Shown here piece by piece: positions 6,822-63,384 of a stretch of DNA of 64,000 nt (the stretch's first letter is position 1; every line of letters starts with the position of its first letter). A model generated the notes under the pieces. The model was not told where the DNA came from. It saw only the letters and a list, made by a program, of their open reading frames with translations, and searched no databases. The position numbers and the translations under genes were made by a program. Source of the stretch: an uncultured bacterium (lineage in GTDB: Bacteria; Auribacterota; Erginobacteria; Erginobacterales; CAZKCI01); NCBI GenBank assembly GCA_964551475.1, contig CAZKCI010000121.1, forward strand, positions 14,308-78,307, written 5' to 3'.

Positions 6822-6970
6822 GGTTATCAGGTTCAGCGGTTCAACGGTTCACGGTTCAACGGTTCGGCGGTTCAACGGTTCAGCGGTTCAGCGGTTCAAC
6901 GGTTCGGCGGTTCGGCGGTTCACGGTTATCGTCATCATTTTCAACCGTTGAACCGTGAACCCTTGAACCG
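6822..6970. repeat. Tandem array of about 12 GGTTCRRC octamers followed by an inverted copy (aaccgttgaaccgtgaacc), forming a long dyad; family A copy 1
   Basis: Direct reading of the sequence; the same architecture recurs at 57458-57600 and 63306-63384, and copies 1 and 3 both begin ggttatcaggttca. Confidence 0.9.
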
Positions 6971-13242: not shown

Positions 13243-13395
13243 GCGATCAGTAATCAGTGATCAGTGATTTCAACTTTCAGATTTGAGATCTCAGATTTGA
13301 GGTCTGAAATTTGAGATCTGAAATCTGAGATCTGAAATTTGAAATCTGAGATCTGAAATTTGAAATCTGAGATTTGAGATTTGAGATTCCGGATC
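13243..13395. repeat. Composite heptamer array: CAGTRAT units (13243-13275) then about 17 YTGARAT heptamers; families C and B
   Basis: Every unit falls on a strict 7-bp phase (ttcagat ttgagat ctcagat ttgaggt ctgaaat ...). Confidence 0.9.
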
Positions 13396-27215: not shown

Positions 27216-27430
27216 GTTATATTGTGGGAGCGACATTCCTGCCTGCCCCGATAGTCCCGGCAGAAGTGCGGGACTATCGGGGCCGCGATCCGAGTCAACC
27301 TGGATCGGGGCAAGAATGCCCCTCCCACAATCACACTATCGATCGTGTCTATGTCATTTCTGTGGGAGCGGCGTCTCGCCGCGATCCCTGCCAGCCCGGA
27401 TCGGGCCGAGGACGGCCCTCCCACAAAATC
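27216..27430. repeat. Two family-D palindromic elements between the NuoL-like gene and the hydrogenase large-subunit gene
   Basis: tattgtgggagcgacattcctgcctgccccgatagtcccggcagaagtgcgggactatcgggg...cccctcccaca, plus a second copy at 27355-27425. Confidence 0.85.
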
Positions 27431-34604: not shown

Positions 34605-34628
34605 CGGACATTCCGAAATCACGAACAA

Positions 34629-34666
34629 CACTAAACGCCCGACGCGAAAGCGTCGGGCGTTTAGTG
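34629..34666 (+). terminator. Perfect 17-bp stem hairpin with GAAA tetraloop downstream of the L,D-transpeptidase gene
   Basis: cactaaacgcccgacgc gaaa gcgtcgggcgtttagtg, 22 nt after the stop; U-tract weak. Confidence 0.45.
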
Positions 34667-34712
34667 TCGGATGTAAATTGACCCCGTCGCGCGTGCGTGT
34701 TAGGGTGGAAAG

Positions 34713-35783
34713 ATGGACCAGGAATGCGGCATTTCCGATCTCCTGCTCGGCGCGCTCCTGCTCTCCCGCTATCTTCAGTCGTCCCCGGCCGGCGAGGCTG
34801 CCCGCCGGGCTCTCTATCTCCTGATTGACCGGTCCCTTTCCCCGGCCTCGCCGACCGGCGAGAAGAACCTCGCCGAACGATTGGAGACACTGAGCGAACA
34901 GGGAGTGCTGGCTCCCGAAGCGAAGGCGAAGCTCCTCTCGCTTCACCGGGAGCTCCTCTCCTTTTTCGCCGCCGACTCCCGCTATGTCCCCGGATTTATC
35001 CAGAAGCGCGTCGCCGCTTTCGTGGCGGCGGTGAACGGCTTCTACCGCGGGTCGGGCGGAAGGGATCTGGAAAGCGAACTGGGGAAACTCTCCCCGGAGA
35101 GCTGGGCCCGGGTGGAAAAGGCGGCCGGGACGGCCGTCGCCCTGGTCCGCCAGGCGATGGACACGATGTCCATCCGTCCGGAGGACTTCCGCGATCTCTC
35201 CCTCCTTCGTTCCAAGGTCCAGGTCTGGGCGCCCGCCCTCCTCCCCGCTTTGCGGGAGAAAGGCTTCGCCTTCACGCTCGACTCGATATCCCGCGTGAAC
35301 CTCAGCTCGGGCTATATCTGGGTCGCCTTTCTCCCCGATCCCTCGCGGCGGAAGATGGAACAGCCCACCTATTCCTTCTCCTTCACCCCCCGCCACTGCC
35401 GGGCGGGGCTGGAACTGGGAGGGAAAACCCGGGAGGCCCGCGCAGCCTACTATAAGAAGCTTCTCTCCGGCGAACTCGACGACATCATCGCCGCGATGGC
35501 GCCGCTGGGCGGTGTCTTCCTGGACGTGGTCTGGTATTTTTCCGCCCGGGACGCCGTCTCCATGCGCGATTACCTCGCGGACCAGGACGGAGCGAAAAAG
35601 CGCGTTGCCGCCAAGATCGCCGACGGCCGGAAGCGCCTCCCCCGGGACGTCCTGTACACCTGGAACCTTCTCCTCCCGGTGGTCCTGATCACACCCGAGG
35701 AGTTCGCCCGGGAGGGGATCAACGACTTCCTGGTCCGCCTGGCCGATCCGGTGGTAAAGCTCATCCGGCGGATCGGGGGATAA
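34713..35783 (+). CDS. Hypothetical protein
   Basis: Long ORF with normal codon bias; no recognisable motif. Confidence 0.5.
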   Translation: MDQECGISDLLLGALLLSRYLQSSPAGEAARRALYLLIDRSLSPASPTGEKNLAERLETLSEQGVLAPEAKAKLLSLHRELLSFFAADSRYVPGFIQKRVAAFVAAVNGFYRGSGGRDLESELGKLSPESWARVEKAAGTAVALVRQAMDTMSIRPEDFRDLSLLRSKVQVWAPALLPALREKGFAFTLDSISRVNLSSGYIWVAFLPDPSRRKMEQPTYSFSFTPRHCRAGLELGGKTREARAAYYKKLLSGELDDIIAAMAPLGGVFLDVVWYFSARDAVSMRDYLADQDGAKKRVAAKIADGRKRLPRDVLYTWNLLLPVVLITPEEFAREGINDFLVRLADPVVKLIRRIGG

Positions 35784-35847
35784 AAAGATCGCGAGGTTCC
35801 CGACACCCGGCCGGGAACCTCGCGATCTTCTGCTCGGTGGAAAACGG

Positions 35848-37563: not shown

Positions 37564-38275
37564 CACAACCCCTTCGGGGTTGATGGCGGCATCGGCTCCC
37601 CCAACCCGGGGTAGCGCCTCCGGCGCAACCCCGGGCTATGCGATGGAATCCCGTTGGGATTCGGCCTCCGGCGACAATGCCAAAAGATCTGGATTGGGAA
37701 TCGATGCCGGAAAACGCTGTTCGACGACGGCTGGTCCCAACAAAATCATCTTCGATCACCCAGACGTCTTGCCCCTGTGAACGCCACTTTGAAAGTTATC
37801 TTCTTCACCCGGTTTGAAATCTCCCTTTCGGGCCGGCGGTCACATGCCCCAACGGGGCAACGTCCCCTAGCCCAGGGTTGCGCCGGAGGCGCTACCCTGG
37901 GTAAACGACACGCATCGCCAGGCCAACCCCAACGGGGTTGTGTCCCCTAGCCCAGGGTTGCGCCGGAGGCGCTACCCTGGGTAAACGGCGCGCAACGACA
38001 GGCCAACCCCAACGGGGTTGCATCCCCTAGCCCAGGGTTGCGCCGGAGGCGCTACCCTGGGTAAACGACACGCAGCGCCAGGCCAACCCCGACGGGGTTG
38101 CGTCCCCTAGCCCAGGGTTGCGCCGGAGGCGCTACCCTGGGTAAACGGCGCGCAACGACAGGCCAACCCCAACGGGGTTGTGTCCCCTAGCCCAGGGTTG
38201 CGCCGGAGGCGCTACCCTGGGTAAACGACACGCAACGACAACCAACCCCAACGGGGTTGCATCAAAGGAGAACGG
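37560..38275. repeat. REP array upstream of the RAYT: one inverted-orientation unit (37560-37690), a diverged spacer, then five tandem 80-bp structured units
   Basis: Unit cccctagcccagggttgcgccggaggcgctaccctgggtaaacgacacgcaacgacaggccaaccccaacggggttgcgt; contains nested hairpins and a GTAG (as CTAC) tetranucleotide. Confidence 0.9.
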
Positions 38276-38739: not shown

Positions 38740-39430
38740 TTGACACAACCCCTTCGGGGTTGACGGGGATATTGCTCTCGTATACCCGGGGTAGCGCCTT
38801 CGGCGCAACCCCGGGCTACATGACAGAATCCCTTTGGGATTCGTCCCCCGCAATTGCCCAAAAGGGGCAATGTCCCCTGGCCAAGCATTGCGCCAAAATC
38901 GTCCGATGGAATCCTATTGGGTATTCGGCTCCTGCAACAACGCTGGGATGCCGAGTACGGAAACCTCACCTGCAACACCATCCCAAACAATATTGTGAGG
39001 CATTCGTTAACCCCAACGGGGTTGCGTCTCCTAGCCCAGGGTTGCGCCGAAGGCGCTACCCTGGGTAAACGACACGCAACGACAGGCCAACCCCAACAGG
39101 GTTGCGTCTCCTAGCCCAGGGTTGCGCCGGAGGCGCTACCCTGGGTAAACGGCGCGCAACGACAGGCCAACCCCAACGGGGTTGCGTCTCCTAGCCCAGG
39201 GTTGCGCCGAAGGCGCTACCCTGGGTTAACGACACGCAACGACAGGCCAACCCCAACGGGGTTGCGTCCCCTAGCCCAGGGTTGCGCCGAAGGCGCTACC
39301 CTGGGTAAACGGCGCGCAACGACAGGCCAACCCCAACGGGGTTGCGTCCCCTAGCCCAGGGTTGCGCCGAAGGCGCTACCCTGGGTTAACGACACGCAAC
39401 GACAGGCCAACCCCAACGGGGTTGCGTCCC
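38740..39430. repeat. REP array downstream of the RAYT: inverted-orientation unit (38740-38870), a diverged spacer, then five tandem 80-bp units
   Basis: Same unit as the upstream array; 38740-38870 and 37560-37690 share ttgacacaaccccttcggggttga...cccggggtagcgcc. Confidence 0.9.
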
Positions 39431-43630: not shown

Positions 43631-44353
43631 ATGAACGCGAACACCTACGCTGCTATCGGCGAATCCTTCCCTCCCCTCTCCTCACGGGAACCGGATGCCG
43701 CTTTCGTTGCCCGCTGGGAGAGGGAGAACGAGCGCCTGCGGGAGATCGTCCTGTCGGTCAAGGCCGCCGATGAAAAGGTCAAGGATGAGGTTTTGCGGGC
43801 GGGCCTGATGGACCCCCGAAATGCCGTCATCCGGGAGGAGATCAAGTCCTTCTGCGCCATCCCCTACCGGCGTCGGGAGGGACCGCTCGCCCCCTGCGAG
43901 GGAATCACCTACGGTTGGAAAGGCTGTCCACCCCATTCCCCTCCGGTCGCTGAAACCATCTCGCTCCTGCGCTCCGCCTCCGCCTTCCTCATCCTTCAAT
44001 TCAGCGGCCTCAAGCATCACTCCTTCCAGAAGCACATCCACGAGTTCACGCTCTCGCTGGAAGCGGTTCTCCGGGGAAAGGGATGGAAGGTTCTTCAGAG
44101 CTACAGCACCGGCCCCTGCCGTCTCTGCGCCAAGGGGTGCGCCGAAAGCGGGGACTGCCGTCAGCCTCAGAGGAGACGCTTCGCCCTGGAGTCCTGCGGT
44201 TTCTGGGTGAAGAGCCTCTGCCGGGCGGCCGCCCGCTTTCCCCTCTGCGGAGACGGGGAGTGGGAGATTGAGTGGATCCGGGACTGGAACCTGCCCTCCC
44301 AGTCCCCCCCTACCTACCGGGCGGTGACGGGGATACTGCTGGTACATGGGTGA
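43631..44353 (+). CDS. Cys-rich predicted metal-binding protein (DUF2284-like)
   Basis: Several Cys pairs (CEGITYGWKGC, CRLCAKGCAESGDC, CGFWVKSLC). Confidence 0.6.
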   Translation: MNANTYAAIGESFPPLSSREPDAAFVARWERENERLREIVLSVKAADEKVKDEVLRAGLMDPRNAVIREEIKSFCAIPYRRREGPLAPCEGITYGWKGCPPHSPPVAETISLLRSASAFLILQFSGLKHHSFQKHIHEFTLSLEAVLRGKGWKVLQSYSTGPCRLCAKGCAESGDCRQPQRRRFALESCGFWVKSLCRAAARFPLCGDGEWEIEWIRDWNLPSQSPPTYRAVTGILLVHG

Positions 44354-44651
44354 AGGTTAGGAAGTGGGTCTGGGGGATAGGTCAGGGTCAGGTTAGGCCA
44401 GACGGGCTACACTATTAACCTTACCCATTTACCAGACCATCATCCTTACCCTGACCCATCGACCCCGATGGCAAATGGGTAAGGGTCAGGAAGTGGGCCT
44501 GGGGGATGGGTCAGGGTCAGGTGGGGCCAGACGGGCTACACTATTAACCTTACCCATTTACCAGACCATCATCCTTACCCTGACCCATCGACCCCGATGG
44601 TACATGGGTAAGGGTCAGGAAGTGGGTCTGGGGGATGGGTCAGGTCGATGG
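44341..44651. repeat. About 129-bp structured tandem repeat, 2.4 copies, spanning the DUF2284 stop codon to the nfo stop codon
   Basis: Copies start at 44341, 44469 and 44599; each unit holds internal inverted segments (aaatgggtaagggtcagg... versus ...ccttaccctgacccat). Confidence 0.9.
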
Positions 44652-48672: not shown

Positions 48673-48782
48673 TGGTGGGAGCGACATTCTTGCCTGCCCC
48701 GATAGTCCCGGCAGAAGTGCGGGACTATCGGGGTCGCGATCCGAGTCAACCTGGATCGGGGCGAGACGCCCCTCCCACATAT
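48673..48782. repeat. Family-D palindromic element (tattgtgggagcgacattcttgcctgccccgatagtcccgg...cccctcccacatatgg)
   Basis: Near-identical to the 27216-27330 copy. Confidence 0.85.
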
Positions 48783-55655: not shown

Positions 55656-57466
55656 GCGACCGTCTCCCCGGCTTTCCGCGCTTCCTCGATCAGCGTCGCT
55701 TTATCGACTCCCCCGCCGATATGGTCCCAGGGAAGCGTGTCCTCTCGACCATAGGGCGGACGAAGATAGAACTCGGGCGCGAGACCGGCTTTGGAAAAAG
55801 CCCGCTCCCACCGTTCGCTGGACAGATGCTCCTCCCACTCGTCAAACCGGCATCCCTCTTCGTGGGCGGCCAGGAGGATCCCTCCGACCCGGCGGTCCCC
55901 CCGGGAGATCACGCCCTCGATCAAACTCGTCTCCAGCGAACGGAACTTGAGCCTCACCCGCCGGGAGCGCACGCCGGAGCGGAGCACGGCCTGGGCCGAC
56001 CGGATCTCCTCCCGAGCGGCCATGGGCGCCCACTGGAACGGAGTGGCCGGCTTGGGGACGAAGGTGGAGATCGTGACGTTGGTCTCCCCTCCCCAGCGGG
56101 AGAGGCGGTTGATCATTTCGACGATGGCCTCCACGTCCTCCCTGGTCTCCCCCGGAAGGCCGACCATGAAATAGAGCTTCATCAGACGCCAGCCCATGGC
56201 CTTGAGCTTCTGGCTCAGATCCCAGAGGCGCTGCGGGTCGCAGGATTTTCCGATCGCCCGCTGGAGGCGGGGGCTGGCGGCCTCGGGGGCGAGCGTGATC
56301 CCGCTCTTGCTCACCCGCTTGCTCTCCAGAAGCATCGCCTCCGTGACCGAGGCGATGTTGAGCGAAGGCAGGGAGAGTCCGATCCGCCGTCGGGCCAGAA
56401 CGGGGGAAAGCTCCTCCATCACCGCGGCGATCTCGGGGTGGTCGCCGCTGGAGAGCGAGAGGAGCGAGACCTCTCCCCGGCCGCTCCTCTCGGCGAGCGC
56501 CAGCGCCTGGCGGACCGTCTCCTCCTTCGACTTGCGCCGCACCGGGCGGGAGGTCCAGCCGGCGGCGCAGAAACGGCAGCCGCGGGCGCAGCCGCGCATG
56601 ATCTCGACCGCGGAACGGTCGTGTGTGACCTCGGTCAGGGGGACCAGCGGGGCCGCTATTTGAGATCGGTTCAGGTCGGCAAAAACGCGCTTCTCGATCC
56701 GGGAGGGGATGCCGTCCCCGATCGGACTGATCCCCGTGAACTTCCCGGCCGAATCGTAGGCGGGCCGGTAGAGCGCAGGCGCATACAGCCCCGGAACCCG
56801 GTTCACCATGCGCCGGAGAAGCTCCAGCTTCCCCTCCTCTCTTCTCTCCTGTCGGAGCGAAGCGGAGATCCCGATCGGCGCCACTGGCGATGATCGGGAC
56901 CCTTCCTGCCTTTCTTTTTGATATGCCTCCATTATCTCGACGATGGCTTCCTCGCCGTCCCCGATGAGAAAGAGATCGAAGAAATCCGCCAGCGGCTCGG
57001 GGTTATAGGCGCCGATCCCTCCCCCCAGAACGAGCGGATAACCAGGATGGGCGCGGCGGGAGGCCAGGAGGGGAAGGCCGGCCAGCGAAAGCATGGCCAG
57101 GATATTGGTGTAGGTGAGCTCGGACTGGAGGGAAAATCCCCAGAGATCGAACTCCCGGGCCGGGCGGCGGGATTCCAGCGAGAAGAGGGGGATACCCTTC
57201 GCCTTCATCCTCTCCTCCATGTCGGGCCAGACCGCGAAAGCCCGTTCCGCCGCGAACCGTCCGTCCCGGTTCACGATGTCATAGAGGATCTGCAGGCCGA
57301 GATGGCTCATCCCCAGCTCGTAGACATCCGGATAGCTGAAGAGAATCCGCGCCTCCGCCCGGGGGCGGACGGACGCATTGATCTCCCCCCCGATATAGCG
57401 GGCGGGCTTCTGGACGAAGGGGAGGACCTCCTCTTCCAGAACGCGGATTATGTTCAGAGGGTTCAA
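55652..57466 (-). CDS. TIGR03960-family B12-binding-domain radical SAM protein; TTG start embedded in the family-A repeat
   Basis: Radical SAM CxxxCxxC (CARGCRFCAAG), N-terminal B12-binding-like region; no in-frame ATG near the N-terminus, TTG at 57466. Confidence 0.8.
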   Translation of the reverse strand: MNPLNIIRVLEEEVLPFVQKPARYIGGEINASVRPRAEARILFSYPDVYELGMSHLGLQILYDIVNRDGRFAAERAFAVWPDMEERMKAKGIPLFSLESRRPAREFDLWGFSLQSELTYTNILAMLSLAGLPLLASRRAHPGYPLVLGGGIGAYNPEPLADFFDLFLIGDGEEAIVEIMEAYQKERQEGSRSSPVAPIGISASLRQERREEGKLELLRRMVNRVPGLYAPALYRPAYDSAGKFTGISPIGDGIPSRIEKRVFADLNRSQIAAPLVPLTEVTHDRSAVEIMRGCARGCRFCAAGWTSRPVRRKSKEETVRQALALAERSGRGEVSLLSLSSGDHPEIAAVMEELSPVLARRRIGLSLPSLNIASVTEAMLLESKRVSKSGITLAPEAASPRLQRAIGKSCDPQRLWDLSQKLKAMGWRLMKLYFMVGLPGETREDVEAIVEMINRLSRWGGETNVTISTFVPKPATPFQWAPMAAREEIRSAQAVLRSGVRSRRVRLKFRSLETSLIEGVISRGDRRVGGILLAAHEEGCRFDEWEEHLSSERWERAFSKAGLAPEFYLRPPYGREDTLPWDHIGGGVDKATLIEEARKAGETVA

Positions 57467-57600
57467 CGGTTCAGCGGTTCAACGGTTCAGCGGTTCAACG
57501 GTTCAGCGGTTCAACGGTTCAGCGGTTCAACGGTTCAGCGGTTCAGCGGTTCAGCGGTTCAACGGTTTAAAGGCAACCGTGAACCTTGAACCGTGAACCC
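57458..57600. repeat. Family-A GGTTCRRC octamer array (about 13 units) plus inverted arm
   Basis: ggttcaacggttcagcgg... then aaccgtgaaccttgaaccgtgaacc. Confidence 0.9.
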
Positions 57601-57636: not shown

Positions 57637-58737
57637 TTAATACCAGAATCGTCGGATATAGACGCTCTGGCAGATCCCCATCAGGGAGAGCATCGTGACG
57701 GTGATGGAACCCCCGTAGCTCAGGAAAGGCAACGGCAGTCCGGTGGCTGGGAGGAGCCCCATCACCATCCCCACGTTGATCAGGACATGGCTGGAGAAGA
57801 CCAGGATGCAGCCTGCGACCAGGAGTTTCCCGATGAAATCACGGGAAGCGCGGGCGATCCGGTAGAGTCGGAAAACCACGAGCGCGTAGAGCCCGAGAAC
57901 CGCGAGCGAACCCGCCGCGCCCGATTCCTCCGCCACCACCGAGAAGATGAAGTCGGTCTGGCGCTCGGGAAGAAAACTGAGCATGTTCTGCGTCCCCTGC
58001 ATCCGGCCTTTTCCCCAGATCCCCCCCGATCCGATCGCGATCTTGGACTGGATCACCGTGTATCCCGCCCCCAGCGGATCGCGGGTGGGGTCCAGGAAGA
58101 CCAGGAGACGGTTCTTCTGATAATCCTTGAGGAAAATCCAGAACCCCGGAGATATCACGGCGAAGAGCAGAGCCAGGATGACCAGGTGCTTGATGCGCGC
58201 CCCGGCGATAAAGACCATCCCGATGGTCAGGGGGATGAGCAGAAGCGCCGTCCCCAGATCCGGCTGTTTCAGGATCAGGACCGCCGGGAAGGCGGCCAGC
58301 AGGCAGGGGACAAGGATGAACTTCCAGCGGAGGCGCTGGGCGGAGGCGGAGGAGAGATAGCGGGAGAGGGCCAGGACCAGGGCGAGCTTGGCGAACTCGG
58401 AGGGCTGGACGGTGAAGGCCCCCAGCTGAATCCAGCGCCGGGCGCCGAAACGGATCTCTCCCAGGACCGCGATCAGCAGGAGCAGGGCGAAGACCGCGCC
58501 GTAGATGATGAAGGACGCGGACGCGAGCCGCCGATAGTCGATGAGAGTAAAAAGCATGAACAGGCATCCCCCGATGGCCAGCCAGGTGAGCTGGCGCTGG
58601 GCAAAGTTCACTCCGCTGGTCTGCCGGAGCTGGAAGGAGGCGCTGTCGATGAAGAAGAGGCCGATCGTCGCCAGCGCGAGGAGCGCGGCGATCAGCCACC
58701 AGTCCAAGTATTTCAGCAATCGAAACATATCACTCAT
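57637..58737 (-). CDS. rodA: Rod shape-determining protein RodA (SEDS family peptidoglycan glycosyltransferase)
   Basis: Ten-TM FtsW/RodA/SpoVE pattern. Confidence 0.9.
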   Translation of the reverse strand: MSDMFRLLKYLDWWLIAALLALATIGLFFIDSASFQLRQTSGVNFAQRQLTWLAIGGCLFMLFTLIDYRRLASASFIIYGAVFALLLLIAVLGEIRFGARRWIQLGAFTVQPSEFAKLALVLALSRYLSSASAQRLRWKFILVPCLLAAFPAVLILKQPDLGTALLLIPLTIGMVFIAGARIKHLVILALLFAVISPGFWIFLKDYQKNRLLVFLDPTRDPLGAGYTVIQSKIAIGSGGIWGKGRMQGTQNMLSFLPERQTDFIFSVVAEESGAAGSLAVLGLYALVVFRLYRIARASRDFIGKLLVAGCILVFSSHVLINVGMVMGLLPATGLPLPFLSYGGSITVTMLSLMGICQSVYIRRFWY

Positions 58738-60484
58738 AGTACTTCCGGAAAAACTCCCCCGCGGCCGGCGCGGCTATTTCGCCTCCCGATCCCGGCTCCT
58801 CCAGGATCAGGGCGAGGACCAGCGGCCTTTCCCCGGCGGGGACCAGGGCCAGGAACCAGGCCTGCGTGTCATACTCGGGCGCCACTCCCACCTGCACCGT
58901 CCCCGTCTTCCCGTAGACCGTGACCCGGGGATGGGCGGCCAGCATCCCCGTTCCCCCCTCCTCGTTGACCACCCGGTACATCCCATTCCAGATATCGTCC
59001 CACTGGCGCTCGGGGAGACGAATCTCCCTCCGGATCACCGGGGGAAATTCCTGGATCGTCTCCCCCTTGGAGTTGGTGATCCGCGTCGCCAGGCGGGGCT
59101 GGAAAACCTTGCCCCGGCTGGCGATCAGGCATCCCATCGAGGCCATCTGGAGGGGCGTCACCCGGATATACCCCTGGCCGATGGAGAGGTTGGCCGTATC
59201 CCCCGGATACCATCCCTCGCGCAGCGTCGACTTCTTCCACTGGCGGCTGGGGACGAATCCCGCCTTCTCTCCCACCAGTCCGATCCCCGTCTTTTCCCCG
59301 AACCCCGCCAGCAAGGCCGCTTCCCGGATGCGGTCGAGACCGAGGTCGAGGCCGAGGCGGTAGAAAAATACGTTGCACGAGTTTTTGATCCCCTCCCGGA
59401 GAGCCAGGGGGCCATGGCCGCCCTCTTTCCAGCAGCGGAAGACGGTCGATCCGAGAGAGATCGATCCGGCGCAGTCCGTCGTCGCTTCCGGGTTGAGCTT
59501 GCCCGAACGGAAGCCCGCCAGCGTCACCACCAACTTGAAGGGCGAGCCCGGAGGATATTCCCCGCCCAGGGCCCGGTTCAGGATCGGGGAATCGGGGTGG
59601 GAGAATATCTCCTGGAGATACTCCTCGTCCACCGGACGGGTGAGCAGGTTGGGATCGAAGGACGGTTTGCTGACCAGCGCCAGCAGGTCGCCGTTCCTGG
59701 GATCGAGCGCGACCGCCGCCCCTTTTCGGCCCTCCAGAATTCCGTCCAGGATCGTCTGGGCCCGCAGATCCACCGTCAGATACAGGTTGTTCCCGGGCTG
59801 GGGGTCCCGGCCGGCCAGGACCCGGTCCCGGTAGCCGCGGGCATTGACCTGGATCTGCTCGCCCCCACCCACGCCTCGGAGGAACAGGTCGAAGGACTGC
59901 TCCACGCCGATCTTGCCGATGTCGTCCTGCGATCCGTAGCCAAGATCGCCCAGCCGTTCCAGCTCACGCCCTTCGATCTGACCGACATAGCCGATCAGGT
60001 GAACGAAGGCGGGGCCGTAGGGGTAGTTGCGCACCGGATTCACCCGAACCTCCACGCCTTCCCATTCCGGGCTCCTCTCCTCGAACACCGTGGCCCGGGC
60101 GATCCCGATGTCGGTGGCCAGACGGACCGGCTCGAACGGTTTCTGGCGGAAACGGTTGAGCCGGGTCCGGATCCGCTCCGGCTCGATCTCCAGGACCTCG
60201 CTCAGGCGGGCGATCAGCTTGTCCTGGTCTTTCACCTCGCTCAGGTTGACCAGGGTTTCGAAACCGGGGCGATTGTCGGCGAGAATCTTTCCGTCCCGGT
60301 CGAAGATCGATCCCCGGGGGGCGGGGATGGTCACCAGACGAATGCGGTTGCCTTCGGCCAGACGCTCGTATTCGTCCCCCCGGATCACCTGGATATACCA
60401 GAGAACGGAGGCCAGTGCGCCGGCGGCGACGGCGAGAAGGGTGACGAGAACGGCGAGGCGAAGGTCGGTCCGGGGAAGGTCCAT
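58730..60484 (-). CDS. mrdA: Penicillin-binding protein 2 (elongasome transpeptidase)
   Basis: N-terminal anchor, dimerisation domain, transpeptidase SxxK/SxN/KTG motifs. Confidence 0.9.
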   Translation of the reverse strand: MDLPRTDLRLAVLVTLLAVAAGALASVLWYIQVIRGDEYERLAEGNRIRLVTIPAPRGSIFDRDGKILADNRPGFETLVNLSEVKDQDKLIARLSEVLEIEPERIRTRLNRFRQKPFEPVRLATDIGIARATVFEERSPEWEGVEVRVNPVRNYPYGPAFVHLIGYVGQIEGRELERLGDLGYGSQDDIGKIGVEQSFDLFLRGVGGGEQIQVNARGYRDRVLAGRDPQPGNNLYLTVDLRAQTILDGILEGRKGAAVALDPRNGDLLALVSKPSFDPNLLTRPVDEEYLQEIFSHPDSPILNRALGGEYPPGSPFKLVVTLAGFRSGKLNPEATTDCAGSISLGSTVFRCWKEGGHGPLALREGIKNSCNVFFYRLGLDLGLDRIREAALLAGFGEKTGIGLVGEKAGFVPSRQWKKSTLREGWYPGDTANLSIGQGYIRVTPLQMASMGCLIASRGKVFQPRLATRITNSKGETIQEFPPVIRREIRLPERQWDDIWNGMYRVVNEEGGTGMLAAHPRVTVYGKTGTVQVGVAPEYDTQAWFLALVPAGERPLVLALILEEPGSGGEIAAPAAGEFFRKYYE

Positions 60485-60625
60485 GAGAGATAATCTCAGA
60501 TTTCAGATCTCAGATATCGGATCGCGAATCTCGGATTCGGGATTTCGGATCGTGGATCCCGGTTTGAAATCTCAAATCCCAGCTATCAAATCTCAAATCT
60601 GAAATCTGAGATCTCAAATCCTCCG
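60481..60625. repeat. About 20-unit heptamer array whose first half (tYtcRga) is the reverse complement of its second half (ctSaaat), forming a giant dyad between mrdA and mreD; family B
   Basis: tctcaga tttcaga tctcaga ... ttgaaat ctcaaat ... ctgaaat ctgagat ctcaaat, every unit on a 7-bp phase. Confidence 0.9.
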
Positions 60626-60638
60626 GGCGGCGGCCGTT

Positions 60639-61175
60639 TCATTCGGGAAATACTTTCTCGCAGACCCACCAGACCAGGGGTGAGACAAGCAAAGTCTGCC
60701 AGAGACCCGGCCAGACCGTCTCCTTGAGGGCCCAACCCACGCTCGGCTGGATCCGGTACACGCAGAGCAGAAGGTAATAGACGGCGGCGCCGACGAGCGA
60801 GGCGATCGCGATCATCAGCGCTTTCGTGCCGAAATGGCCGGCACGGAGGGACCGGCAGAGCCGGACCGCTACCCGCGCTCCGGCCGCCAGGGAGAGAGGA
60901 CCCAGGCCGAGACGGCCGGCGGAGAAGATATCGCTGAGGAGCCCCCCCAGAAGGGCCGCCAGCCAGCCCTCGGCCGGGGAACGCGCCGCGTTCCGGAAAA
61001 CAACCAGGATCAGCACCAGGTCGGGGCGGAACCACCCTACCCCCAGCGCCGAGGACAGTCCGCTCTGGAGAAGAACCGCCCCCAGAAGAAGCAGGAAGAG
61101 CAGTCCCCGCTCCCGGTAGGCGCGGGCGCGGAAGGAGGCGGCCAGGACGATCGGACGGCGGACGGCGACGCTCAT
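60639..61175 (-). CDS. mreD: Rod shape-determining protein MreD
   Basis: Small polytopic membrane protein immediately downstream of mreC. Confidence 0.7.
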   Translation of the reverse strand: MSVAVRRPIVLAASFRARAYRERGLLFLLLLGAVLLQSGLSSALGVGWFRPDLVLILVVFRNAARSPAEGWLAALLGGLLSDIFSAGRLGLGPLSLAAGARVAVRLCRSLRAGHFGTKALMIAIASLVGAAVYYLLLCVYRIQPSVGWALKETVWPGLWQTLLVSPLVWWVCEKVFPE

Positions 61176-61963
61176 GGCTGGGAACGCTCGATCACCATCA
61201 CCTGGTCCAGCCGGTCGAAGTCGGCCGCCGGCTCCACGTCCGCGTACTGGTAGAGACCGAATTTCTCGGAATAGACTTTCGTGATCCGTCCGATCGGAAG
61301 GCCGGGGGGATAGAGCTGTCCCAGGCCGGAGGTGACCACCAGCTCATCGAGGGCGATCTCCTGGCGGCGGGGCAGATAATTGATCACCAGCGTGGAGGCG
61401 GAGACCCCCTGGACGATCCCCCCCAGCCGGGAGGACTGCAGGACCCCCCCCACCCGGCTGTTCCCGTCGATCAGGAGCAGAACGCGGCTGGAGTGGGGCG
61501 AGACCTCGATCACCTTCCCGACCACTCCCCGCGGGGAGACCACCGCGGCGTCCTTCTTGACCCCGTCCGCCGCTCCCTTGTCGATCACCACGCTCTGATA
61601 CCAGTTGTGCACGTCCCGGCCGATGACCAGGGCGGCCACTCCGCTCCAGGACTCCCGCTCCCGGAAGGCGAGCAGTGAGCGCATGGTCTCGTTCTCCCTC
61701 TCGACCTCCTGGAGGCGGGAGAGGTCCCGTTCCAGGGCGGCCACCTTCTCTTCCAGAAGGCGGTTTTCCGTTCCCGCCCGAAGCACCCTCCCGACCCCGG
61801 TCGCCCCCTTCCCCAGGAAGGAGAGGAAACGGCTGGAAACGGTCTGGGCGGGGGAGAAAATCTCCAGGAGACGGCTTTTGACGGACTCCGAGGAGGAGGA
61901 GGAGAGGCTCAGAAGCGCGATCAGGGAGAGGATGATCGCGGTGGCAACGAGCGGTCTGCTCAT
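61172..61963 (-). CDS. mreC: Rod shape-determining protein MreC
   Basis: N-terminal TM helix, coiled coil (LERDLSRLQEVERENETMRSLLAF), C-terminal beta domains. Confidence 0.85.
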   Translation of the reverse strand: MSRPLVATAIILSLIALLSLSSSSSESVKSRLLEIFSPAQTVSSRFLSFLGKGATGVGRVLRAGTENRLLEEKVAALERDLSRLQEVERENETMRSLLAFRERESWSGVAALVIGRDVHNWYQSVVIDKGAADGVKKDAAVVSPRGVVGKVIEVSPHSSRVLLLIDGNSRVGGVLQSSRLGGIVQGVSASTLVINYLPRRQEIALDELVVTSGLGQLYPPGLPIGRITKVYSEKFGLYQYADVEPAADFDRLDQVMVIERSQP

Positions 61964-61967
61964 TTTA

Positions 61968-62009
61968 TTCCGAAATATGTCCTGCCGATCGGCAGGACAT
62001 ATTTCGGAA
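61968..62009. promoter_or_regulatory. 42-bp perfect palindrome (ttccgaaatatgtcctgccga|tcggcaggacatatttcggaa) ending 4 nt upstream of the mreC start codon
   Basis: Exact dyad symmetry on direct reading; centre cgatcg. Confidence 0.5.
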
Positions 62010-62097
62010 AAAATATAGCCTGCCGACGCGCGCGAGGTGAGGAGAAGAGGGCCTCTTCCGCAATCCCGGTTCCGATCGTGCGCTCAAACATAAATTC

Positions 62098-62134
62098 CAG
62101 GGGGGCTGACGGCAAATCCGTCAGCCCCCCTGGG
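62098..62134 (-). terminator. Perfect 16-bp GC-rich hairpin (ccaggggggctgacgg caaat ccgtcagcccccctgg) 3 nt after the mreB stop, followed on the minus strand by AAUUUAUGUUUG
   Basis: Canonical intrinsic-terminator geometry on the transcribed strand. Confidence 0.55.
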
Positions 62135-62136
62135 AT

Positions 62137-63183
62137 TTATTGGACATCGGTGGAACGCTCCGAGACCACGATCCGGCGGAGGAAACGAAGCTCCTCCAGG
62201 ACCTTGCCGGTGCCCAGGGCCACCGCGCTGATCGGGTCGTCCGCGACCTGAACCGGCAGGCCGGTCTCTTCGGCCAGCAGCTTGTCGATGCCGCGCAGGA
62301 GCGACCCTCCTCCGGCCAGGATCATGCCCCGGTCGACCAGGTCCGCCGAGAGCTCCGGCGGGCAGCGCTCCAGGCTAATCCTCACCGCTTCCACGATGGT
62401 GGAGATGGGCTCGGCCATGGCCTCGCGGATCTCCTCGGAGCTGACGGTCATGGTCTTGGGCAGTCCCGCCACCAGGTCGCGCCCCTTGACATCCATGGTC
62501 AGCTCCTGCTCCAGGGGATAGGCCGAGCCGATGTTGATCTTGATCATCTCGGAGGTCCGGGGGCCGATCAGGAGGTTGTAGGTGCGCTTCAGGTACTGGA
62601 TGATCGCCTCGTCCAGCTCGTCCCCCCCCACCCGCACGGAGCGGGAGAAGACGATCCCGGCCAGGGAGATGATGGCGACCTCCGAGGTGCCGCCGCCGAT
62701 GTCCACGATCATGTTCCCGGCCGCCTCCTGCACGGGCAGCCCCACGCCGATCGCCGCCGCCATCGGCTCCTCGATCAGATAGACCTCGCGGGCGCCGGCG
62801 TGCTCGGCCGAGTCCTTGACCGCGCGCTTCTCCACCTCGGTGATCCCGGAGGGGATGGCCACCACGATCCGGGGGCGCACCAGCGCCTTGCGGTTGTGGA
62901 CCTTGGTGATGAAGTAGCGGAGCATCGATTCGGTGATCTCGAAATCGGCGATCACGCCGTCCTTGAGCGGACGGATGGCGACGATGTTCCCCGGCGTCCT
63001 CCCCAGCATGTTCTTCGCCTCCTCTCCCACCGCGAGGACGTTGCTGGTCCCCTTCTGGATCGCCACCACCGAAGGCTCGTTGAGAACGATGCCGCGGCCT
63101 TTGACGAAGACCAGGGTGGTGGCGGTCCCCAGGTCGATCCCCATGTCCGAGGAGAACATCCCTAGGATGCGGTCGAAAAACAT
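62137..63183 (-). CDS. mreB: Rod shape-determining protein MreB (actin homolog)
   Basis: N-terminus [27 protein letters not shown] parallels E. coli MreB; actin-fold phosphate motifs. Confidence 0.95.
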
Positions 63184-63305: not shown

Positions 63306-63384
63306 GGTTATCAGGTTCACGGTTCAGAGGTTCACGGTTCAGGGGTTCACGGTTTTCCCCCCCCAACCGTTGAACCCTTGAACC
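63306..63384. repeat. Family-A GGTTCA-core array plus inverted arm (copy 3)
   Basis: ggttatcaggttcacggttcagaggttcacggttcaggggttcacgg ... aaccgttgaacccttgaacc. Confidence 0.85.

Follow-up and report, generated by a model that had tools for sequence, protein, structure and literature searches.

The mreB-mreC junction

The window, by which we mean the whole 64-kb stretch of DNA analyzed here, carries a cluster of genes read from its minus strand in the order hflX-like gene, mreB, mreC, mreD, and a gene for a PBP2-type transpeptidase. The first of these was named from the Pfam families listed for the equivalent gene in a relative (locus L132), while the others were called in the window itself. 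The genes from mreB onward and the elements recognized between mreB and mreC are as follows.

62137..63183, minus strand: mreB, 348 aa, with a TAA stop codon at 62139-62137; open reading frame and Pfam MreB_Mbl match (3.1e-152)
62097..62133, minus strand: GC-rich hairpin with a 16-bp stem, of which 13 of 16 pairs are G-C, and a loop of 5
62027..62096, minus strand: variable middle of the spacer, not conserved among relatives in the alignment and without a sigma-70-like promoter
62011..62026, minus strand: box 1, TCGGCAGGCTATATTT, a degenerate direct copy (14/16) of the 3' arm of the palindrome
61968-62009, minus strand: perfect palindrome of 42 bp, which as RNA folds into a stem of 19 bp capped by a GAUC loop (-33.8 kcal/mol)
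61958..61967, minus strand: UAAA+AUG+AGC, the 3' strand of the lower helix, which pairs with 62010-62019
61172..61963, minus strand: mreC, 263 aa, with its ATG at 61963; Pfam MreC match (1.9e-49)
60639..61175, minus strand: mreD, 178 aa; Pfam MreD match (1e-6)
58730..60484, minus strand: PBP2-type transpeptidase gene (mrdA-like), the next gene after mreD; Pfam PBP_dimer and Transpeptidase matches

The reading frames of mreC and mreD share 4 nt (ATGA), and translation of mreD is predicted to be linked to that of mreC. Because the N terminus of MreC, M(S/R)R..., is conserved and is accompanied by a transmembrane helix in most of 27 aligned homologues, the mreC ATG at 61963 can be regarded as secure. 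This leaves a spacer of 173 nt between mreB and mreC, and the 201-nt intergenic RNA is predicted to fold at -107.5 kcal/mol, compared to -64.0 ± 4.4 kcal/mol for its shuffles (z = -9.9).

The palindrome next to mreC had been picked out by the initial annotation, and we recovered it exactly as described there. Its two 21-nt halves, TTCCGAAATATGTCCTGCCGA, run from 61968 to 61988 on the plus strand and from 61989 to 62009 on the minus strand with 0 mismatches, no shuffle reproduced such a half-match, and only 4 bases (TAAA) separate the palindrome from the mreC ATG. No other near-perfect inverted repeat in the 64-kb window is as long. Complementarity in fact reaches past the 42 bp, so that each arm measures 25 nt and a single U.U mismatch is included, and in the minimum-free-energy fold pairing takes in the AUG and the next codon, for Ser, with GCU.UAUUUU opposite AAAAUG+AGC. 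The start codon of mreC is accordingly predicted to be paired, with a probability of 0.06 of being unpaired. The 3' arm also carries the sole Shine-Dalgarno-like bases of mreC: AGGAGG-type Shine-Dalgarno sequences precede mreB and many of the other genes in the window, a tally from automatic start picking that was unreliable (it chose internal GTGs for mreB and mreC) and shows only that strong Shine-Dalgarno sequences are common, while mreC has only a GGA, inside the stem.

Just upstream of the palindrome, box 1 forms a third, degenerate copy of the half-site. It is complementary to the 5' arm over 16 nt (88%), with which it can pair, and to AUG+AGC through its 3' part (GCUAUAU). Two other accounts of the palindrome were considered and set aside. 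As a terminator it would be preceded by U and followed by A on both strands, leaving no U-tail, and as an assembly artifact it would be expected neither inside a long contig, where it lies, nor to have its equivalents in independent JGI, ENA, Logan, and NCBI assemblies.

The window contains several other kinds of repeats. Two tandem arrays, at 37847-38260 and 39009-39428, consist of an 80-nt unit present in 5.2 copies each (91-95% matches), and single copies of the same element lie at 37605-37635 and 38785-38815; each unit holds a 31-nt palindrome, CCCAGGGTTGCGCC(G/A)GAGGCGCTACCCTGGG, and these are not CRISPR arrays, since the stretches between the palindromes are alike. Intergenic arrays of an 8-nt unit, GGTTCAGC/GGTTCAAC, in 3-13 copies are found at 6830-6927, 57460-57567, and 63313-63354, the last of them upstream of mreB, between it and the hflX-like gene. 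Self-complementary arrays with a 7-nt period, TTTGAGA / GATTTGAGATCTCAGATTT, occur at 13275-13388 and at about 60500-60620, the latter just downstream of mreD, before the PBP2 gene. A dispersed repeat is made up of the palindrome CCCCGATAGTCCCG-N9-CGGGACTATCGGGG, found at 27243-27285 and 48697-48733 with a common flank ...gcgatccgagtcaacc, and the region 44346-44644 holds 2.3 copies of a 129-nt unit (94% matches) with internal inverted GGGTAAGG/CCTTACCC motifs.

The spacer in related genomes

Regions upstream of mreC were gathered by exact-protein look-ups and by scans of metagenome and genome collections. According to its MreC homologues, the lineage in the window is an uncultured member of the PVC group, whose nearest named relatives are Candidatus Auribacterota/Aureabacteria MAGs and whose more distant relatives include Ca. 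Euphemobacter and Ca. Erginobacter (phylum Auribacterota). A close clade, in which MreC is 83-93% identical, comprises three species-level groups and eight distinct sequences (the window, L001, L002, L140, L003, L004/L139, L005/L084/L136, and L132-L138). The mreB-mreC spacer is 153-322 nt long in every member of this clade, compared to a gap of only 5-18 nt, with a GGGG or GGAG Shine-Dalgarno sequence, in 13 distant relatives whose MreC is 50-59% identical, which makes the long spacer an innovation of the clade. Every clade spacer has the same layout, a GC hairpin after mreB and a helix of ~20-25 bp that runs up to the mreC AUG.

In the window, the GC hairpin begins 3 nt past the mreB stop codon, can be extended by A/U pairs to 62090-62140, and is followed by the tail AAUUUAUGUUU, which is U-rich but interrupted. 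The initial annotation had already described a 16-bp stem 3 nt after the stop, a description that holds apart from its coordinates (62098-62134), which were one base off. Its reading of this hairpin as a probable terminator fared less evenly. A GC hairpin is present in all clade relatives whose locus reaches the mreB stop, where it begins 3-10 nt after the stop, has a predicted energy of -22 to -46 kcal/mol, and differs in sequence between members, but only the tail of the window passes a loose U-tail criterion, which the tails of the relatives fail. The hairpin is likely to be a partial terminator or attenuator or a stabilizer of the mRNA 3' end. Two further hairpins in the window are similar in kind.

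34626-34669: perfect 18-bp GC-rich hairpin directly after a stop codon, without a U-tail
35783-35831: perfect 18-bp GC-rich hairpin directly after a stop codon, without a U-tail

Both had been candidates for hairpins abutting a start codon and were rejected as such, given their position behind stop codons and their terminator-like character. Taken with the one that follows mreB, they suggest that hairpins lacking a U-tract serve to end or protect transcripts in this genome.

The sequence of the spacer changes far more readily than that of the genes on either side. In three pairs of strains with mreC genes that are 97-100% identical in nucleotide sequence (L140 and L139, L002 and L004, and L001 and L005), the spacers are essentially non-homologous, at 35-60% identity, and the two members of each pair carry different types of hairpin; identity drops close to the mreB stop and close to the mreC ATG. 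The upper stem of the helix next to mreC falls into four sequence types, which we call unrelated, though type D is related to type C.

Upper stem type A (window, L002, L140, L003): CCGAAAUAU.UCCUGCCG
Upper stem type B (L001): CCGGCGUGAGC
Upper stem type C (L004, L139): CCGGCUUAUGCC
Upper stem type D (L005, L132): related to type C

Two species-level groups share type A, and the relatedness of types C and D extends over two groups. Such sharing of allele types between several species-level groups points to exchange of intergenic cassettes or to an old polymorphism. That the two-hairpin layout has outlasted this turnover of the spacer is the strongest argument that structure, rather than sequence, is what matters here.

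Some members of the clade carry an additional element in the spacer. An insertion of ~165 nt that resembles a MITE lies at about 2760-2925 of L132 and is also found in L137, L138, and L133-L135; it has inverted ends, GTCATTGCGAGCGAAGCGAAGCAATCTC ... GAGATTGCTTCG ... CCTCGCAATGAC, and several contigs break within it. It lies upstream of box 1 and leaves the helix intact.

The helix itself is present in all eight distinct clade sequences, with a 3' strand that reaches the mreC AUG and usually extends into it, and the hairpin alone has a predicted energy of -26 to -34 kcal/mol. Its base, UAAUCCGG/CCGGAUUA, is kept in seven of the eight, the window having UUUUCCG/CGGAAUA instead, and the basal helix common to most sequences can be written UUUUUAAUCCGG ... 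CCGGAUUAAAAA-AUG. In all alleles the helix is continuous over ~19-25 bp, in line with the ~20 bp or more of near-uninterrupted double-stranded RNA expected of an RNase III processing site. Types A, C, and D extend complementarity beyond the palindrome onto the AUG, for example as GCUCAUAU/AUAUGAGC in L004 and as UCAUCUU/AAGAUGA in L005. In a MAFFT alignment of the clade, 93.6% of cells are paired, compared to 35-54% in slid controls, and 9 of 25 pairs show changes on both sides, values that none of 500 shuffles reached; RNAalifold independently predicts the same helix. When counted in register from the base, changes on both sides occur at 7 upper-stem and 3 lower-stem levels, but since the palindrome is swapped as a unit, is self-complementary by construction, and exists as about four alleles, covariation is weaker evidence for selection than these counts suggest. 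The imperfect pairs of L002, L140, and L003 include U.G and G.U wobbles, which pair only on the mreC sense strand, leaving 1 mismatch per sequence on that strand versus 2 on the antisense strand.

Box 1 is less uniform across the clade. Its GGCA core is found in all four allele types, and its duplex with the 5' arm is predicted at -16.6 kcal/mol in type A, reached by none of 300 shuffles, and at -16.2 kcal/mol in type D, matched by at most 0.3% of shuffles, while in types B and C the pairing of box 1 with the 5' arm is not significant versus shuffles. A reading of the GGCA(GG) box as a sigma-54 or Shine-Dalgarno element was rejected by eye, and one as a Shine-Dalgarno sequence drawn near by the hairpin, as in T4 gene 38, was rejected as well, both because the spacings misfit and because types C and D are without AGG.

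Access to the mreC start and competing readings

The consequence of this helix for ribosome access was estimated by computing the cost of opening positions -15 to +5 of mreC. In the clade this cost is 17-31 kcal/mol, whereas the 13 distant relatives need 4-16 kcal/mol and the equivalent region of the window's mreB needs 6.0 kcal/mol, and the probability that the region is unpaired in the clade is 0.05-0.24. The 3' arm spans about -25 to -1 and covers the AUG in types A, C, and D, while the AUG is predicted to be unpaired in L001 (0.79) and partly so in L132 (0.36). The proposal in the initial annotation that the palindrome, as RNA, would sequester the translation-initiation region of mreC is thus borne out at the level of predicted structure, by a helix in all members and by the cost of opening it. 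From the comparison with relatives and these folding models, we consider that the palindrome probably encodes an RNA stem-loop in the leader between the two cistrons, acting in cis to close off the translation-initiation region of mreC.

Other readings put the selected function, if there is one, in the DNA. The arms might be a by-product of mutation or the footprint of mobile DNA, arising by template switching, arm-to-arm correction, or import and having no selected role at mreC. The palindromes of the window, L002, and L003 are symmetric even at the center (CGATCG versus CGGCCG), where an RNA hairpin cannot pair and needs no symmetry, and the window and L002 differ there by a symmetric A.T-to-G.C change, which hints at a contribution at the DNA level, such as template switching or inverted duplication. 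Replacement of the whole spacer between strains with 97-100% identical flanks, the MITE-like insertion in the spacer of some strains, and the abundance of intergenic repeats in the genome fit the same picture. However, four alleles place the 3' end of a helix of ~20 bp or more at the AUG and keep the GC hairpin, which chance would not be expected to do repeatedly; pairing reaches the start codon, outside the palindrome; and burying the start of an essential gene would be deleterious unless it were integrated into regulation. When 251 kb (the window and 16 related loci) were searched with a covariance model of the eight sequences, the mreC sites alone were recovered, a result that also led us to reject a dispersed palindromic element of the REP or MITE kind, while a loose anchor pattern was uninformative, with 128 matches versus 147 expected. 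We consider an origin without function unlikely. The palindrome had also been called an ideal operator for a dimeric regulator, and a factor bound to it or to its outer half-sites TAATCCG/CGGATTA could repress or roadblock mreC transcription. Exact two-fold symmetry, the third half-site copy in the window, outer bases that are conserved across most alleles, and a palindromic site proposed over the mreC ATG of Anabaena (PMC7593598) all speak for such a site, but conservation is confined to those outer bases. The inner 2 x 12-17 bp are wholly different among alleles, even in strains with 99% identical mreC, the conserved UCC/GGA anchors are 27, 31, or 37 nt apart, which changes the helical phase of the half-sites, and substitutions of the wobble type are tolerated. 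In addition, 42 bp far exceeds the usual length of an operator, no regulator gene lies beside the hflX-like/mreB/mreC/mreD/PBP2 cluster, and a search for further copies of the palindrome, which the initial annotation had looked to as members of a regulon, yielded no other site within the 64-kb window when up to 3 mismatches were allowed, nor did the covariance model in the 251 kb. We regard an operator as very unlikely.

Two further readings keep the hairpin in the RNA but leave the mreC start available to ribosomes. If mreCD had a promoter of its own that fired into the 5' arm, the transcript would begin with a stem-loop that protects the mRNA, and GGA-AUG would be free. In every allele, an A/T-rich hexamer resembling a -10 element does mark the 5' base of the helix (TATATT in the window; TATAAT, TAAAAT, and TTTAAT in relatives), a start ~7 nt downstream would fall on a G or A at about 62005-62004 and give a 17-bp 5'-terminal hairpin followed by GGAAUAAAAUG, and a transcription start has been placed 37 nt ahead of mreC in Anabaena (PMC7593598). 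A simpler explanation is that the hexamer complements the AUG and the A-rich stretch preceding it; complementarity onto the AUG accounts for a conserved, CAU-containing "-10-like" motif without a promoter. Most of the hexamers also lack the key A2 (TTTAAT), in types C and D the start would fall so far into the 5' arm that no hairpin would form and the architecture would not be conserved, and the alignment of the clade contains no conserved block in the middle of the spacer. No sigma-70-like -35/-10 pair was found in the spacers of the window and four relatives, but sigma-70 rules may not be those of the Auribacterota, and an internal promoter consequently keeps some weight, although we hold it to be improbable. 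Coupling through an upstream reading frame would solve the access problem differently, with ribosomes that terminate at an ATGA overlap melting the helix and reinitiating at mreC. The window is suggestive, in that the mreB frame stays open for 58 codons past its TAA, with an in-frame ATG at 62094 and a TGA that overlaps the mreC ATG, but in the relatives this frame is closed by a TAA in the 5' arm (TTTTTAATCC) after 14-30 open codons, and no start codon or peptide is conserved among them. The 58-codon open frame (ATG at 62094 to 61960, minus strand) is probably due to chance, and translational coupling of this kind appears extremely improbable.

Probable occlusion of mreC and the proposed balance of MreB, MreC, and MreD

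Occlusion of the mreC start by an RNA helix, the reading we favor, suggests the following sequence of events. A genus-level clade of Candidatus Auribacterota would have swapped a short junction with a Shine-Dalgarno sequence for a spacer with two hairpins. The first hairpin would end or stabilize most mreB transcripts, and on RNA that reads through, the second would hold translation of mreC and of the coupled mreD low by covering the weak GGA, the A-rich spacer behind it, and, in most alleles, the AUG itself. The outcome would be MreC and MreD at a small fraction of the level of MreB, and the element looks like a clade-specific case of a familiar way to make less MreC and MreD than MreB. MreC is normally needed wherever MreB is, which makes so stable a helix paradoxical unless it is opened, and residual or regulated expression of mreC would then require such opening. 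How this happens we can propose with much lower confidence than occlusion itself. The most likely route would be cleavage of the two-turn duplex by RNase III, as in E. coli adhE and lambda cIII. Alternatively, a ribosome might load while box 1 is transiently paired with the 5' arm, before the 3' arm is transcribed, a route against which it counts that this pairing is significant in types A and D only.

A more ambitious version of this last idea would make the spacer a hypervariable cassette, exchanged between strains and species, of which every allele is a three-segment RNA switch with mutually exclusive pairings. Pairing of box 1 with the 5' arm would free the mreC start transiently or on a signal, after which the more stable helix between the 5' and 3' arms, which RNase III might target, would lock it. 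We think this doubtful. If it were true, the spacer would represent a new class of cis-regulatory RNA for the cell-elongation machinery, one in which structure is selected while sequence turns over.

Burying a start site in RNA structure and setting stoichiometry with an intercistronic hairpin are both classic devices, and separate handling of mreB and mreCD has been described before. Wachi et al. are said to have reported in 2006 that mreB of E. coli is mainly monocistronic. In Legionella, a monocistronic mreB mRNA ends at a terminator after mreB (PMC4630621), and in Anabaena a 1.3-kb mreB transcript exists alongside the intergenic start before mreC (PMC7593598). With these precedents, the view in the initial annotation that uncoupling of mreB from mreCD is unusual was overstated. 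The resemblance lies in the stem-loop after mreB and in the fact that mreCD differ from mreB in expression level or in the transcripts used; unlike the clade, Legionella, Anabaena, and E. coli are without a ~20-25 bp RNA helix that buries the mreC start. The palindrome proposed as an NtcA site over the Anabaena mreC ATG (PMC7593598) is a short protein-binding site (GTA-N8-TAC), unlike the 42-bp palindrome found here.

For the second hairpin, the closest parallels are the E. coli adhE 5' untranslated region and lambda cIII, in which cleavage by RNase III unmasks a ribosome-binding site that had been occluded (PMC5371410). There, as here, a long, near-perfect RNA duplex of about two turns, the length RNase III requires, includes the ribosome-binding site of the gene behind it, but the helix of the Auribacterota clade lies between two cistrons of a cell-shape operon, has an unrelated sequence, and belongs to an uncultured PVC phylum in which its cleavage is our supposition. 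For the first hairpin, ABC importers of cellulolytic Clostridia offer a comparison, in that intercistronic stem-loops or internal terminators set subunit stoichiometry and a hairpin after an abundant first gene lowers expression of its downstream partners (PMC9045158). The clade differs in having a second structure that would act on translation initiation and a U-tract after the first hairpin that is weak, or absent in relatives.

The turnover of the spacer also has a counterpart. Oren et al. reportedly described, in PNAS in 2014, horizontal switching of intergenic regulatory regions between strains. Non-homologous intergenic alleles between near-identical genes, some of them found in several species, are common to both cases; in the clade, however, all alleles keep one layout, and exchange does not obviously rewire regulation.

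Nothing is overturned by these results, as both occluded start sites and the uncoupling of mreB from mreCD were already known. The element itself is new, as are its restriction to one clade of Auribacterota and its survival through wholesale replacement of alleles. Rfam returned 0 matches in the window at the gathering score, and below threshold only generic hairpins of miRNA precursors, which makes the helix a candidate cis-regulatory RNA motif absent from that collection. If our reading is correct, non-homologous alleles lying between genes that are 97-100% identical would amount to a clean natural case of selection acting solely on RNA structure, and occlusion of the mreC start would mean that one uncultured PVC lineage has rebuilt its mreB-mreC junction in such a way that the stoichiometry of MreB to MreC and MreD is set after transcription.
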